Positions 20,261-46,191 are shown, counted from the first letter of the stretch. The stretch: 64,000 nucleotides of DNA from an uncultured Planctomycetota bacterium (GCA_963845755.1 CAWJTV010000011.1:736001-800000), one strand, 5' to 3'. Notes: generated by a model not told the origin, from the sequence alone. A program made the numbers and translations.

Positions 20261-22321
20261 ATGTTGACCCCCAAGTGGAGATTCATCGCCCTGGCCCGGG
20301 TGTTCCTTGGCGTCGTCGCGACGAGCGCGAGTTATCTGGCTCCCGCCCTTGCCGTGGACGATGACGCCAACCCGAAGCCGGCTCCCGGGCCGGATGTTCG
20401 TCGTCGGCCGCGTGCTCGACGCGAACGGCAAACCGGTGCCCGGCGCCACGGTCGCGGTCTATGCGCAGCACCTCGCGTGCGGGCCTGGTCCCCGCCTTTT
20501 TTTGTCGATAAGGGGCCAGGTTTCGATCGGCGAACGTCCGCGCCGACGATCTGGGCCGGTTCCGGATCGATGCACCTCGTACGTCATCGTCGCATCATGA
20601 GGCGTTCGGCGCCATCGCCCTGGCGCCCGGTCACGGTATCGGCTGGGTCGACCTCGATCCCGACGACGATCAGCCCACTGCCGACATCACACTCCGGCCA
20701 GAGCACGTGATCCATGGGCGGCTCTTCGACCTGCAAGGCCAGCCTGTCTCGAATGTCACGCTCGCGGTCGCGATCGATCCGTCGATCCAAGTCCACCGGA
20801 TCCGGCCGCGGTCCCGGAGACCGCTCGAGGGTGTTCGTCTATTCGTATACCAAAATCAATGATCTTCCGGCCTGGCCCCGGCCGGTGATGAGCGACTCCG
20901 AGGGCCGCTTCACCCTGCGCGGCCTGGGCCGGGGCCTGGATGCGCTCCTCACCGTCCATCACCCACGATTCGCCCTCCAGAGAATTGAGATCGAGCCGGA
21001 TGACCACTTCGAAATCGAAGCCGAGTGACGGCGGCGCTGATGCCGGCTCAGATCCTGACCGGACGCGTGACCTATGCCGACACGGGCGAGGGAGTTCCTC
21101 ATGCCCCGCTTGAGGTGATGGCCAGTCACGGGAGAGCCGTCATCCCCTCCGCATTCGAGACCGACGACCAGGGCCGGTTCCGCGTGGATCCTCCGCCGGC
21201 AGACCGCGTCTTCGGCGTCCTGGCCCATCCCCCGAGAGGACAGCCCTATCTCATCGCCCGGGGACGTGTCGATTGGCCCAAGGGCGCGCTCGAGCAATCC
21301 CTGGACCTCGCCTTGCCGCGTGGCGTCTTGATCCACGGCACGGTCACTGAGGAGGGCTCCGGCAAGCCCGTCGCGGGCGCGACCGTCGACTTCGGCGCAT
21401 GGGCGGCGGAGCTTGGCGGAAAGCGGAAGCATCATCCTCGATACCGCAGCCGATGGCTCATTTCAACTCGGAGCGATGCTCGGCCCGGGTTGCCTCTTCA
21501 TCCAGGGGCCCAGCGACGATTACGTGTTCCAGTCCATCGACACTCAGATGGTTAATGCAGGCCGGCCCGGCGGCGGCCGGCTCTACTCGCACGCCCATCA
21601 GTTGCTCGACCTGAAACCCGGTGTCGCCAGTCAGGAAGTCCACGTCGTGCTTCGCCGCGGCGCGACGGTGACCGGCCAGGTCGTCGGTCCCGATGGCCAG
21701 CCCGTCCGGGAGGCCTGGATCTTCAGCCGGGTCGTTCTCGATCCGAGACAAGTTCCGTGGCAGCGCTGGGCGGCTCGCCACCACGGCAAGGTGCACAACG
21801 GTCGTTTCGAAATCCACGGGCTCGACCGCGATACCGAGGTCCCCGTCTACTTCCTGGAACCGAATCGCAAGCTGGGCGGCACGGTGAATCTCTCGGGTAA
21901 GTCCGCGACCGGCGAGCCGGCCACCGTCCGCCTCAAGCCCTGCGGCGCGGCCAAGGCGCGAGTCGTCGGCCCCGTCGGCAAGCCGGTTGCGGGGCGGCTC
22001 CCGGGCACGATCATCACCATGGTCGTCACCCCCGGCCCACCCTCCTACGGTTTCCCGTCAGAACAGGCCAGCCTTCTCTCCGCCGACGAGGCCGCCCTGA
22101 ACCAGGTGGATACGGTCAACTACCCGGCCGAGGTCACGACTGATGCCGACGGCCGCATCACGCTCCCGGTCCTGATCCCCGGCGCGACGTATCGATTCAT
22201 CGACTACACCATGGCCGTCCGCGGCCAGACCGGCCCGACGGTCCGCAAGGAGTTCACCGTCAAGCCCGGCGAGACGCTCGATCTGGGCGACGTGCGGATC
22301 GAGAAGCCCCAATCGCCATGA
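20261..22321 (+). CDS. Array copy A: exported carboxypeptidase-regulatory-like repeat protein without sigma domain (several frameshifts)
   Basis: MLTPKWRFIALARVFLGVVATSASYLAPALA leader, then [56 protein letters not shown]. Confidence 0.75.
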
Positions 22322-22372
22322 ATTCTTCGAACCGTCTCGCCGAACCGCACGTCGTGACCTCGGTCGTGAGAC

Positions 22373-22479
22373 CGTAGTTCGGACGGGGACCTCCAACCTC
22401 GCACGTCAGTGCGATTCACCCAGCCCCTCAGATCGGGCTGACGCCCGAGGCTGGTGGGCTGCGCCCCGTCCGAACCACG
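22373..22479. repeat. GTAG-type REP-like inverted pair
   Basis: cgtagttcggacgggg ... ccccgtccgaaccacg. Confidence 0.5.
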
Positions 22480-22528
22480 CACTCACCTGCCTGGTCGCGG
22501 GCAGGAGCCTCTACCAAGAACACAACTC

Positions 22529-22558
22529 GGGATAAAATATCGGACACCGGGGCAGTAT
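22529..22558 (+). promoter_or_regulatory. Putative ECF-type promoter GGGATA-N18-CAGTAT (copy B)
   Basis: Same motif and spacing precede all seven ECF fusion genes. Confidence 0.65.
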
Positions 22559-43101: not shown

Positions 43102-43168
43102 GGGCGAACCCGGAGATTGGGACGGTATTCCCATGCATTATGACGCTCTTCCCTTTTCCGGACAACCC

Positions 43169-43198
43169 GGGAGAAAATCATCGGCATCAGGGCAGTAT
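43169..43198 (+). promoter_or_regulatory. Putative ECF-type promoter GGGAGA-N18-CAGTAT (copy H)
   Basis: GGGAGA 43169-43174, CAGTAT 43193-43198. Confidence 0.6.
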
Positions 43199-43269
43199 CC
43201 CGTGTGGGGATGAAAACGACACCGCGTGCGACGCTCGGAACGATCTCGACCAGGAGAGGGCCTGACGGT

Positions 43270-46191
43270 ATGTCGCCTGTGACAACTCCATCGGTGGTCC
43301 GGCAGCTCGGGTCGCTGTTCGACGGCGGTTCCGTCGCCGGACTCTCCGACCGTCAGCTCCTCGAGCGGTTCAACGACCGCCGCGATGCCACCGGCGAGAC
43401 CGCCTTCGCCGCCCTGGTGGCCCGGCACGGGCCGATGGTCCTGCACGTCTGCCGGCAGATCCTCGGCGACCACCAGCATGCCGAGGACGCCTTTCAGGCC
43501 GTGTTCCTCGTCCTGGCGCGCAAGGCCCGGTCGATCCGCGACCCCGACCTCCTGGGAAACTGGCTGTATGGGGTCGCGTTGCGAACCGCCCGCAAGGCAC
43601 GAACCCAACTTGCCCGCCGGCGCAAGCATGAGGAGGGCGACGCCATGAACCGTCCCGGCACATTGGTCGAACCGATGGTCGAGCCGGCCGGAGGGTCGGT
43701 CCTGGCGCGCGAGCAGGCCGAGATCCTTCACAGCGAGATCGACCGCCTGCCCGGCCCGTTTCGCCTGGCGGTGGTGATGTGCTATCTCGAGGGCCTGACC
43801 CTCGACGAGGCCGCCCGACGGCTCAAATGCCCGGCCGGCACGATCCGCAGCCGCCTGGCCCGGGCCTGCGACAAGCTCCGCCGTGGACTCACGCGCCGGG
43901 GCGTCGTCGTGTCTGCGGCCGGCCTGGCCGCCACCTTGAGCCCTCGAGCCGCATCGGCAGCCGTCTCATCCCCCTTGTGCGAGATGACGACCCGGGCCGC
44001 GTTCGCGTTCGCGGCCGGACAGGCCGCCGCGCCCGCCGCGACGGCGATTGCCCAGGAGGTGATCCGATCCATGTTCGTGACCAGACTGAAATTCACCGTG
44101 ATGCTCTTGCTGTTCCTCGGTGCCGTCGCCGCCGGTGCGGGATTGGTTGGGCAGGAGCCAGACCGTCAGGCTGGAAAGCCTGACGTACCGCGTCAGGCTG
44201 GAAAGCTTGACCGACACGCTGCCCCGGGGCGGATGACCGTCGTCGGCCGGGTGTTCGACCCGTCGGGCAAGCCGGTGCCGAACGCGTCGGTGATGGTTTA
44301 CGCGCGGCTCAAGCAATTCGCGAATCCGGTCATCCGGGCCGGCGGCCTCGGCCTGGGCCCGCCGGTGACCGATTCCGGGCGCGTGCGAGGATTCGGGCCG
44401 GTTCCGGCTCGACGCGGCGCGGACCGCGTCGTCGCGAAACAGCCTGCTCGTCGCGGTTGCCCTGGCGCCGGGTTACGCGATGGGCTGGGTCGAGCTCGAC
44501 CCCGACGCCGATCAGCCCACCGCCGAGATTGCACTCCCGCCCGAACAGATCGTCCGGGGCCGGCTCTTCGACGTACAGGGCCAGCCCGTCCCGCGCGGCG
44601 GTCGTGGTGCGGTCGGTCAGCCTGATCGTCGATCGCCAACTGGGCAGTCCGCTGTTCCGGCCCGATTACTTCGATCGGCCGACGATCGACCTGCCCGCCT
44701 GGCCCAGACCGGCGATCAGCGATGACGCGGGCCGCTTCACCCTCCGCGGCCTGGGGCCCAAATTCGTGACCCAGGTCACCGTCGATGACGCGCGGGGCGT
44801 CCTTCCGCCAACCCTGATCCAGACCGACCACACCATCGACCCCAGAGACTTTGGCACGCTCTTACCCGTGATCAAGGTCGACACGGGCCCGGATCCCAAG
44901 CCGCTGACGATCGCCTTGCAGCCGACCCGCACCGTTTCCGGGCGCGTCACTTACGCCGATACCGGCCAGCCCGTCCCCCACGCTCGGCTCCTGCTCGGGA
45001 CCACGCTAGTCCAGGCCGATGGCGAGGGACGGTTCCGCGCGACCACGCCTCATGGCCGCGAGTTCGGGAACATCAAGGCTCAGTCGGCGGACGCACTGCC
45101 ATACCTGAATGTGTCGAAGTCGTTCAACTGGCCCAAAGGCGCGGTTGAGCATACGGTCGACCTGGCGCTGCCTCGCGGCGTGGTGATCCGCGGCAAGATC
45201 ACCGAGGACGGCACCGGAAAACCGATCGTCGGTGCGGTCGTGCTGTTTACCCCCTACAGCTCGGCACGAGCGAACAAGCAGGAGAGACACAATCCGACCT
45301 CGTCCGCCACCGACCCCGACGGCGCGTTCCAGGTCGTGGCGCCGGCCGGTCCGGGCTACCTGGTCGTCCAGGGTCCCAGCGACGATTACGTGCTCCGGGA
45401 GTTCGGCGCGAAGGGTGGGGAGTTCTATGCCGAGCCGGGCAACCGGCGTTTCTACGCCCACGCCTACACGTTCCTCGACCTCAAACCCGAGAGCGTCAGC
45501 CAGGACGTCAACCTCACGCTCCGTCCCGGCACGACCATCACGGGCCGAGTCCTCGGGCCGGATGGCCAGCCCGTCCGTGACGCATGGATCTTCAGCCGGG
45601 TCATCCTGCACGAGGTCCCCTCGGGAGGGTGGAAGATCTGGAATGTCAACTACGGCCGAGGCCGAGGCCAGGTTCACGACGGCCGCTTCGCGCTGCACGG
45701 GCTGGGTCCGGACGAGGAGGTCACGGCGTACTTCATCGAGCCGAAACGGGACTGGGGCGCCGCGGTCAAAGTCTCGGCCAGATCGGCCGCGGCCGGGCCT
45801 CTCACAATTCAGCTCGAGCCCTGCGGCACGGCCACCGCGCGGCTGGTCGGACCCGATGGGAAGCCGCTCGTCCGCTACACCTACCCGTTGATCTCGATGG
45901 TCGTCACGCCGGGCCTGCCATTCCAGGGCAACCTGGCGAAACCCGGCGGCCTCTTGGCCAACGCGGTGCGACTCGACGAAGTCGCCCCGCGCCATTACCA
46001 GAACCCTCGCGAATCCGATGCCCAGGGGCGGATCACGTTCCCGGCCTTGATCCCGGGTGCGCACCTATCGCCTCATCCACCCCAGCCAAGACGCAGGTGG
46101 ACGCATCCAGATCCGCAAGGATTTCACCGTCAAGCCTGGCGAGACCCTCGATCTGGGTGATATCCTGATCGAGAAGCCGCAAGCCCGGTAG
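43270..46191 (+). CDS. Array copy H: membrane-anchored ECF sigma fusion (several frameshifts)
   Basis: [20 protein letters not shown]..; [36 protein letters not shown]; ends [27 protein letters not shown]. Confidence 0.85.

Follow-up and report, generated by a model that had tools for sequence, protein, structure and literature searches.

A bank of membrane-bound sigma factors has been analyzed on a stretch of 64,000 nucleotides, hereafter the window, from an uncultured Planctomycetota bacterium (GCA_963845755.1, CAWJTV010000011.1:736001-800000). Here, seven tandem genes on the plus strand each combine an extracytoplasmic function (ECF) sigma factor, a transmembrane (TM) segment and a large outer part in one chain. 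The array is real, all seven genes are preceded by the same promoter-like element, and each gene is likely to give rise to a second, exported product without sigma, which would consist of the signal or anchor and the outer domain. The promoter-like element is most simply read as autoregulatory and common to all copies, with the bank itself as its main output. The complete chain proposed below, in which a proteolytically released sigma factor would amplify a secreted repertoire of binders using two products per gene, is considered to have an even chance of being correct.

Architecture and Integrity of the Bank

The source genome (G000) comprises 14.3 Mb on 49 contigs, is ~88% complete and contains the window within contig C11. 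A tblastn search with copy 1 finds all seven full-length same-strand paralogues at the starts listed in a first-pass annotation (22606, 25960, 29717, 33362, 36653, 39672, and 43270). The genes extend over 22606..25476 (copy 1), 25960..28872 (copy 2), 29717..32623 (copy 3), 33362..36334 (copy 4), 36653..39518 (copy 5), 39672..42517 (copy 6), and 43270..46191 (copy 7). The eighth copy without a sigma domain, which had also been described, is found at 20261..22321 (c0, plus strand) and has the N-terminus MLTPKWRF and a signal-peptide-like segment ending in A-L-A. As annotated, the motif K(E/D)FTVKPG(E/Q)TL(D/E)LGD forms the C-terminal end of all eight copies. The annotated order of ECF regions 2 and 4, TM and outer scaffold is likewise confirmed, since Pfam identifies Sigma70_r2, Sigma70_r4, and CarboxypepD_reg in copy 1 and there is a single clear hydrophobic segment at residues ~273-291. 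In copy 1 (956 aa), sigma2/sigma4 occupy residues ~45-203, anti-sigma-like helices 207-265 and the TM or signal region 265-296, followed by a stalk and six beta-sandwich domains at 322-950. The DNA-binding parts had been called near-identical, which overstates their likeness: the mean identity among the seven copies is 86% (79-96) in region 2 and 79% (68-98) in region 4, with 78% in the juxtamembrane segment and 55% (48-81) in the outer part. The residues of regions 2.4 and 4.2 are nearly the same across all copies.

The assembly is noisy and the array region is somewhat noisier than its neighbors. The bank with seven copies stands, but copy 1 is the sole intact open reading frame (ORF) of the seven. 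Copies 2-7 contain 32 single-base frameshifts in 20.3 kb (5, 2, 11, 5, 5, and 4, respectively) and 0 in-frame stops; c0 contains 6 frameshifts and 0 in-frame stops, and five neighboring genes with 11 frameshifts in ~11 kb are likewise stop-free. Unaccompanied by stop codons, the frameshifts look like long-read errors. In a sequencing run that may be the source sample (X1), which consists of low-depth contigs, none of which spans the array or covers the body of copy 4, short contigs match copy 2, copy 5, the end of copy 6 and copy 7 with 0-1 differences. At 26207 (copy 2), one of the called breaks, X1 shows an inserted G, and one base is missing from X1 at 38272, beside the break at 38276 (copy 5). 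Frameshift-free copies occur elsewhere, four of six in locus L072 and both in locus L106 of a complete genome. True pseudogenisation is judged unlikely, though less so for copy 4 with its 11 breaks. A misassembly of one or two genes, for which a check had been proposed, is not supported: since the outer domains are too divergent, the X1 contigs match several copies and independent genomes have similar arrays at the same locus, the array is real.

The Sigma Head and a Probable Fused Anti-sigma Domain

The heads contain ECF sigma2 and sigma4 and no sigma3 (Pfam r2 and r4_2; TIGR02937), and the model matches ECF sigma structures. Two cysteines, C61 (VCRQ) and C168 (V[L/M]CY), are present in 7/7 copies, the latter also in 72 of 78 homologues. 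A carboxypeptidase-regulatory-like domain is detected (PF13620, E 6.8e-29), and 47 of 48 related loci are labelled Planctomycetota, Isosphaeraceae or Singulisphaera, one metagenome-assembled genome being labelled Gammaproteobacteria. Judged by sequence, the sigma-TM-outer fusions are of the ECF57 type, as domains, planctomycete host, cysteine pair, the lack of a cognate anti-sigma gene and CarboxypepD_reg all match its description. The proposal of ECF57-type one-component membrane sigma factors with a common extracytoplasmic scaffold is thereby supported, and the repertoire is real.

Beside the fused copies no separate anti-sigma gene is seen, the spacers being toxin-antitoxin (TA) pairs, repeats or empty. 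The first-pass annotation was correct in this respect, but missed that an anti-sigma domain probably sits within the fused chain itself, after sigma region 4 and before the TM. Here, residues 207-265 form three helices in the AlphaFold model of copy 1. When this segment and the sigma core are folded as two chains, the ESMFold2 score is 0.78 vs. 0.00 for the best of three controls. Of 157 solved complexes 116 attain this mark, as do 2 of 215 mismatched pairs. The runs agree on at least 89% of the contacts and the partner has a pLDDT of at least 71. The modelled helix 254-265 lies over residues 72-86 (region 2.2), and sigma4-side contacts are formed at 146-150, 165, 169, and 197-204. This interface is the same as that of class I anti-sigma domains, for which a published account describes a dual interface with sigma2 (2.1/2.2) and sigma4, the last helix blocking core binding (PMC7406223). 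A class I domain is, however, a four-helix bundle, in contrast to the three helices of the model. Among the Pfam and NCBIfam matches shown there is no anti-sigma family. Of the 86 ECF57-like heads of G000, a profile of the segment finds 68, of which 55 have E<1e-3, vs. 0 in the reversed control; 62 of these 68 run on into a TM. The models thus suggest that the ~60 residues between sigma and TM are probably a fused anti-sigma domain. Furthermore, one clear hydrophobic segment is present, and an earlier stretch exceeds a Kyte-Doolittle value of 1.5 only in copy 4 and models against sigma; the fused segment is probably what has been reported as the second TM of ECF57. Cys234 within the inhibitory segment is kept in 67 of 78 homologues.

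A Putative Internal Start and Short Product

In all seven copies a strong Shine-Dalgarno (SD) sequence and a start codon, (A/G)GGAGGT-N9/10-ATG, lie at the first residue of the TM segment (SD+ATG at 23398, 26781, 30509, 34165, 37476, 40475, and 44071 in copies 1-7). Computed against a generic anti-SD sequence, the duplex energy is -11.0 to -11.6 at the internal start vs. -4.1 to -7.4 at the normal starts of the seven copies. Among 84 heads of the subfamily the ATG is present in 77, and 67 of these 77 have the SD core. Arg263 in the SD spacer uses the A/T-rich codons AGA, CGA or CGT in 56 of 69 sequences, while 30 other Arg columns show 5-54%. The mean SD energy of the subfamily is -10.14 vs. 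-7.91+-0.32 after synonymous recoding, with 0/300 recoded sets as strong; these sequences are kin, which overstates the strength of the test, and the divergent heads of G000 are the more independent one. In these other ECF57-like heads the Met is present in 55 of 60 and the SD is encoded by a different peptide (E/Q-G-V). Its Gly codon is GGA in 31/35 cases vs. 95/469 in the background (p 2e-16), and the mean SD energy is -6.1 vs. -5.23 when recoded (1/300 as strong). A control Met has a strong SD in 0/68. Moreover, c0 and many sigma-less genes start exactly at this Met, and a matching sigma-less copy exists in the related genome G001.

Since SD and ATG are conserved under synonymous-codon selection, a second, sigma-less product is implied, and each gene would probably also yield it for export. 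The receptor fusions proposed originally are supported and are extended in this way by a likely second product from the internal ribosome-binding site (RBS). An A-x-A signal-peptidase site is clear in only three of the eight copies (c0, copy 1, and copy 4). In the subfamily, [S/A]-L-A precedes xxDEP (A in 42/54, S/A in 46/54). The short form may stay anchored, because the [S/A]-L-A site is unclear in five copies.

The Promoter-Like Element and its Visible Regulon

The element GGGA(T/C/G)A(A/C)-N17-CAGTA(T/C) is found ahead of 7/7 copies, on the plus strand at 22529..22559 (copy 1, GGGATAA-N17-CAGTATC), 25537..25567 (copy 2, where a dispersed repeat lies between element and start codon), 29640..29670 (copy 3), 33282..33312 (copy 4), 36395..36425 (copy 5), 39600..39630 (copy 6), and 43169..43199 (copy 7). 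We take it to have the shape of an ECF promoter. It is present at 17 of 20 sigma starts examined, one miss in G001 being due to a wrong start estimate, and at 0/9 positions before sigma-less copies, BlaI and DUF1800. In the loci L070-L117 it occurs at 65 of 80 sigma starts, its spacing being constant and the spacer sequence variable (shuffle maximum 6.1); this set may overlap the 20 starts, so the counts are not additive.

A position weight matrix (PWM) of the 65 sites gives eight matches in G000 at a score of at least 21, namely the seven array elements and a paralogue on contig C12, while shifted spacers give 0-3; below 21 there is no excess over the shifted-spacer controls. An earlier matrix of nine sites (score 14) gave 68 other matches in G000 vs. 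56 in the reversed genome. In five other genomes a loose pattern yields 79 matches vs. 31 for the same pattern reversed, and the strict CAGTAT forms lie mostly at arrays. Of the 42 matches of an exact-motif scan of metagenome contigs, 3 are upstream of this sigma, and the others look like chance matches in unrelated DNA. Many other ECF57-like heads have a degenerate relative of the element, ~GG(G/A)A..N16-17..CAnTA, located ~70-85 bases upstream, and with the array matrix 14 of the 86 ECF57-like starts of G000 pass the 95% shuffle level. For the regions upstream of 78 other ECF57-like genes, de novo expectation maximization failed to settle on a single bipartite motif. Because the eight strong genomic matches all front this subfamily, the only visible regulon is the bank. 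The idea of one regulon fed by all copies accordingly holds for the common promoter type, and the regulon that can be detected is that of the bank's own genes. Two near-identical elements at C19:215230 (-) and C5:392072 (-) have a promoter-matrix score of 18-20 and may be targets, or else may serve a different sigma; one of them precedes a prepilin-like ORF, as judged from its motif.

The Outer Scaffold, its Variability and Shuffling

The AlphaFold model of copy 1 shows six all-beta domains at 322-950, mostly with pLDDT >90, and domains four to six pack together compactly (pTM 0.90). The best fold matches are transthyretin-like/CnaB domains (5aq0, Z 12.1, rmsd 1.7, 82 aligned residues; 1qmu, Z 11.7, rmsd 1.8, 80 aligned), a common fold that alone shows no function. 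Foldseek with the whole model returned only pilin-type matches of low TM-score, and the protein atlas only CarboxypepD_reg clusters. High-entropy segments are located at 353-361, 455-463, 561-572, 655-669, 872-880, and 923-930, with a weaker one at ~772-785; this is about one per domain, mostly ahead of the D-x-x-G-R-F strand, within a conserved framework. In eight close pairs pN/pS is 0.38-0.47 for the framework and 0.57-1.07 for the loops. The loop variability appears to be relaxed or diversifying, positive selection not being proven. Near-invariant residues of the outer part are His721 and His796 (117/119 each) and Cys838 (113/119), which together with Cys234 have possible metal or redox roles.

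That the outer part is extracytoplasmic is supported by the BlaR1 fusion described below, in which the scaffold takes the sensor position, by homologues with only a signal peptide, and by the positive charge before the TM (net +2.25 before and +0.25 after it in 52 other heads). A two-TM topology with a cytoplasmic extension is not favored, as the scaffold also follows simple signal peptides and takes the place of the sensor in BlaR1.

Heads and outer parts have been reassorted. At the DNA level copy 5 is 96-100% identical to copy 2 up to codon 200 and 97-100% identical to copy 6 over most of the next 240 codons; it is thus a mosaic, its head being of the copy 2 type and its body of the copy 6 type. 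Copies 1 and 3 have like heads and unlike bodies, and the head of copy 7 is of the same type as that of copy 7 in G001, whose body is of the copy 5/copy 6 type. The head tree (40 sequences) and the outer tree (44 sequences) from the window, G001 and eight loci disagree, and a clade of copies 1 and 3 is rejected on an outer tree of 16 sequences (p-AU 2.8e-39). These mosaics would fit unequal crossing-over through the conserved heads.

REP-like hairpins, GTCAGGCT-GGAA-AGCCTGAC, lie in frame in the stalks of copies 3, 5, 6, and 7 (30603-30682, 37569-37620, 40569-40620, and 44165-44212). They encode RQAGKPD repeats and have 157 matches in G000 and 0 in the reversed control.

Distribution and Genomic Surroundings

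Arrays occur regularly in this subfamily and are less unusual than had been implied. Eight scaffold copies are present in G001 and five in G012, both arrays ending at DUF1800, and runs of at least four copies are found in L070, L072, L075, L079, L084, L086, L099, L107, L109, L115, and L116. The suggested comparison of the locus across related genomes reveals similar arrays before DUF1800-DUF1501 in related Isosphaeraceae. At E<=1e-10, 963 homologues of the outer domain are found among 8000 candidates scored, many of them full-length, and 14 of 31 genomes searched have a match, including 12 of 18 of the same family. The 105 scaffold matches in L070-L117 include 23 sigma-less and 2 BlaR-fused ones. 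In G000, 81-86 ECF57-related heads are counted; 59 of their extensions fall into 42 unrelated clusters, a count which is inflated by frameshift truncation. The genome also encodes M50 proteases (nine matches). A more distant scaffold subfamily (~25%), in which the heads are sigma or BlaI-linked, forms further small tandem groups at C1:109946-118788, C41:548513-554261, and C34:467498-474236.

The scaffold is not confined to the eight copies, since a ninth lies upstream in a frameshifted gene for a BlaR1-like M56 peptidase with the six-domain outer scaffold (9026..12018, plus strand; Peptidase_M56 E 6.2e-22). It follows the gene of its partner, a BlaI/MecI-family repressor (8627..9022, plus strand; Penicillinase_R E 4.7e-29), and its scaffold (~10165-12003) has 34% identity to the outer part of copy 1 over 671 aligned residues (tblastn). 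BlaI-BlaR1 with the same scaffold recurs in L022, L023, L024, L026, L070, and L093, directly before DUF1800 in L023 and heading a run of sigma-less scaffold genes in L070 and L093.

Downstream lies the DUF1800-DUF1501 pair (46508..49332, plus strand), which in many genomes forms the 3' boundary of such arrays. A separate sigma70-like promoter with an extended -10 precedes it at 46256-46283, and DUF1501 shows a twin-arginine-like motif at its N-terminus. DUF1800 stands directly after a scaffold gene at five G000 loci (C11, C12, C19, C34, and C41) of nine DUF1800 match clusters and in 5 of 6 DUF1800-bearing loci of L070-L117. This adjacency suggests a functional link.

Three spacers hold TA-type pairs: DUF433 and DUF5615 (PIN-like; Pfam) at 28946..29556 (plus strand), a ParE/RelE-like and Phd-like pair at 32640..33213 (minus strand), and a ParE-like toxin with a Phd/YefM antitoxin at 42534..43101 (minus strand; Pfam ParE_toxin E 2.1e-5 and PhdYeFM E 5.3e-6, the second below its curated cut-off). 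The latter two share 88% DNA identity, and the RelE-like ORF of the former has no Pfam match at E 0.01. By analogy to superintegrons, these pairs could curb the loss of repeats by recombination. TA-type pairs also flank a scaffold gene in L083. PADLOC gave no match for five proteins. On the minus strand upstream of the array are a divergent planctomycete ECF (TIGR02984) with a Ser/Thr kinase-TPR gene (15663-19850), a block that is inverted relative to the array in G001, and a frameshifted beta-helix protein (12412-15289; Pfam), frequent near such arrays in relatives. Near the end of the window (53368-57999, minus strand) are GyrB-like and DnaN-like ORFs, as judged from their motifs.

Proposed Mechanism and its Alternatives

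Mechanistically, the long product, composed of sigma2-sigma4, fused anti-sigma, one TM and a periplasmic six-domain binder, would wait inactive in the inner membrane, with the anti-sigma domain blocking the core-binding surface of sigma. The short product would be translated from the internal SD and ATG, using the TM as signal or anchor, so that the binder is exported alone. A ligand or a perturbation at the outer part would then trigger proteolysis: a site-1 cut near the A-x-A site or in the stalk, a site-2 cut by an M50 protease in the TM, and trimming of the inhibitory helices would set sigma free. Regulated proteolysis is inferred here by analogy with IutY (Prc and RseP) and RsiV (signal peptidase). 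The free sigma would fire the GGGA(T/C)AA-N17-CAGTA promoters ahead of every fused gene of the bank and, owing to the stronger internal RBS, the exported binder would become the main product. Unequal crossing-over would reassort heads and outer domains, and the hypervariable loops would diversify specificity. A further and tentative thought, held with clearly less confidence than the chain itself, is a repertoire resembling an antibody locus, in which one variable binder would exist in a membrane-bound signaling version and a secreted version, in combination with a constant framework, reshuffling and a feedback raising output.

Several points weigh against the proposed chain. The case for it is drawn from sequence and models. 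The related degenerate elements precede many other ECF57-like genes, so that another sigma could read the promoter, and the PWM scan is blind to a degenerate regulon in a genome that is itself incomplete. Across the other ECF57-like heads the A-x-A site is not enriched (genome-wide, p about 0.1). A covalently attached inhibitor would survive the cut in the TM, hence the extra step. The model of sigma with its anti-sigma pairs two parts of one chain, was built on an alignment made for this analysis, and may score by likeness to solved complexes. Finally, a loop pN/pS of mostly <=1 fits relaxed constraint as well as positive selection.

The most serious alternative, although it is regarded as rather unlikely, follows the lines of the first-pass annotation: the receptors would have one product each, and their sigmas, once released, would control an ordinary regulon of other genes downstream of the signal, e.g., DUF1800-DUF1501 and scattered genes, the internal SD and Met being a vestige of fusion or a translational pause. 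ECF promoters are often degenerate. This degeneracy, the recognition helices common to the copies and the repeated position of DUF1800 next to a scaffold gene are in line with such a regulon. On the contrary, selection on the synonymous codons of the SD persists across paralogues of ~50% identity, no excess of promoter matches is seen away from the bank, and DUF1800 has a promoter of its own. A smaller probability still is assigned to export-monitoring cassettes, where the outer protein would be structural or adhesive, the long form would be processed like a signal peptide, and sigma would report the state of secretion or of the envelope and boost its own cargo. This would agree with the TM apparently acting as signal sequence in derived sigma-less genes, with the [S/A]-L-A before xxDEP, with pilin and adhesin stalk domains as fold relatives, and with the many unrelated extensions of G000 heads (subject to the same inflation by truncation). 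However, the same scaffold sits in the sensor position of BlaR1, and hypervariable loops at the same place of each domain suit binding.

The least probable of these explanations, and an improbable one, is a mostly neutral, decaying birth-and-death array, in which most copies are pseudogenes or some are assembly chimeras. Six of the seven copies being frameshifted, at a higher density than the neighboring genes, and the 96-100% identical heads of copies 2 and 5 would speak for it, as would the fortuitous capture of extensions, which has been proposed (PMC7671368). Nevertheless, stop codons are lacking, two breaks are absent from the X1 contigs, and intact copies exist in L072 and L106. Furthermore, the framework pN/pS of ~0.4, the retention of promoter and SD in every copy, and the 963 homologues, many full-length, are at odds with decay.

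Comparison With Known Systems

The basic architecture of the bank is already known from ECF57, planctomycete ECFs with a TM-bearing C-terminal extension (about two TM helices), Cys in sigma2 and sigma4 and no separate anti-sigma (Casas-Pastor et al., 2021; PMC7826278). Their promoters have been described as not conserved, and a release from the membrane has been proposed (PMC7826278; repeated in PMC8999054). For ECF57s3, a carboxypeptidase-regulatory-like domain is listed under genomic context, and ECF57 is among the most expanded planctomycete ECF groups with ~5.3 per genome (PMC7826278). The bank shares with ECF57s3 the TM extension, the Cys pair, the carboxypeptidase-regulatory-like domain and the lack of a separate anti-sigma. 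In contrast to the ECF57 description, it displays one clear TM, a putative fused anti-sigma module, a conserved promoter-like element of its own, a predicted internal start and a shuffled tandem arrangement. The literature searched, which covers subscription papers thinly, contains no mention of ECF57 genes that stand in tandem banks or have a self-promoter, a second start within the gene or a built-in cytoplasmic anti-sigma domain, and no experimental study of an ECF57 member was found in it; these features and the variable six-domain bank are apparently undescribed in print.

IutY of Pseudomonas putida is a sigma/anti-sigma hybrid activated by Prc and RseP proteolysis (PMC5411451). Like the bank proteins, it carries its cytosolic ECF domain and its periplasmic domain on a single chain with one TM. 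Its inhibitory part is periplasmic and its signal comes from a TonB receptor, whereas for the bank an additional cytoplasmic inhibitory module is predicted, along with the array and the putative second product. The periplasmic domain of IutY-type hybrids is FecR-like, that of the bank CarboxypepD_reg/transthyretin-like, and among the ORFs scanned at 15000-52000 there is no gene for a TonB-dependent receptor of the IutY type (ECF243). For sigmaV/RsiV of Bacillus subtilis, binding of the ligand by the outer domain allows signal peptidase to make the site-1 cut, a possible model for the A-x-A after the TM (PMC6066255). Unlike the fused bank, RsiV is a separate, single-copy anti-sigma with lysozyme as known ligand (PMC6066255).

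The upstream BlaI/BlaR1 (M56) homologue carries the outer scaffold of the bank in place of the penicillin-binding sensor. The output of BlaR1 is the cleavage of a repressor, in contrast to the release of sigma proposed for the bank.

For planctomycete ECFs, heads and extensions have been found to be incongruent, and a minimal sigma2-sigma4 unit was proposed to be duplicated and to capture extensions by chance (Pinto and da Fonseca, 2020; PMC7671368). Whether the extensions regulate and how so large a sigma works are left open there. The bank resembles these ECFs in its conserved sigma2/sigma4 and in extensions of differing history. Its conserved unit is, however, larger than the minimal one, since it includes the promoter, the anti-sigma-like helices, the internal RBS and the TM. 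The putative inhibitory module, the internal start and the self-promoter argue against a minimal sigma with fortuitous capture. If the logic of two products is true, sensing and secretion would be coupled within one gene, and the array would amount to a naturally occurring library of binders that vary on a common scaffold. If this extends to ECF57 as a whole, its head would serve as a movable cassette of promoter, sigma, anti-sigma, RBS and signal sequence, by which any exported protein could become self-sensing, and this would explain why dozens of them are present per planctomycete.

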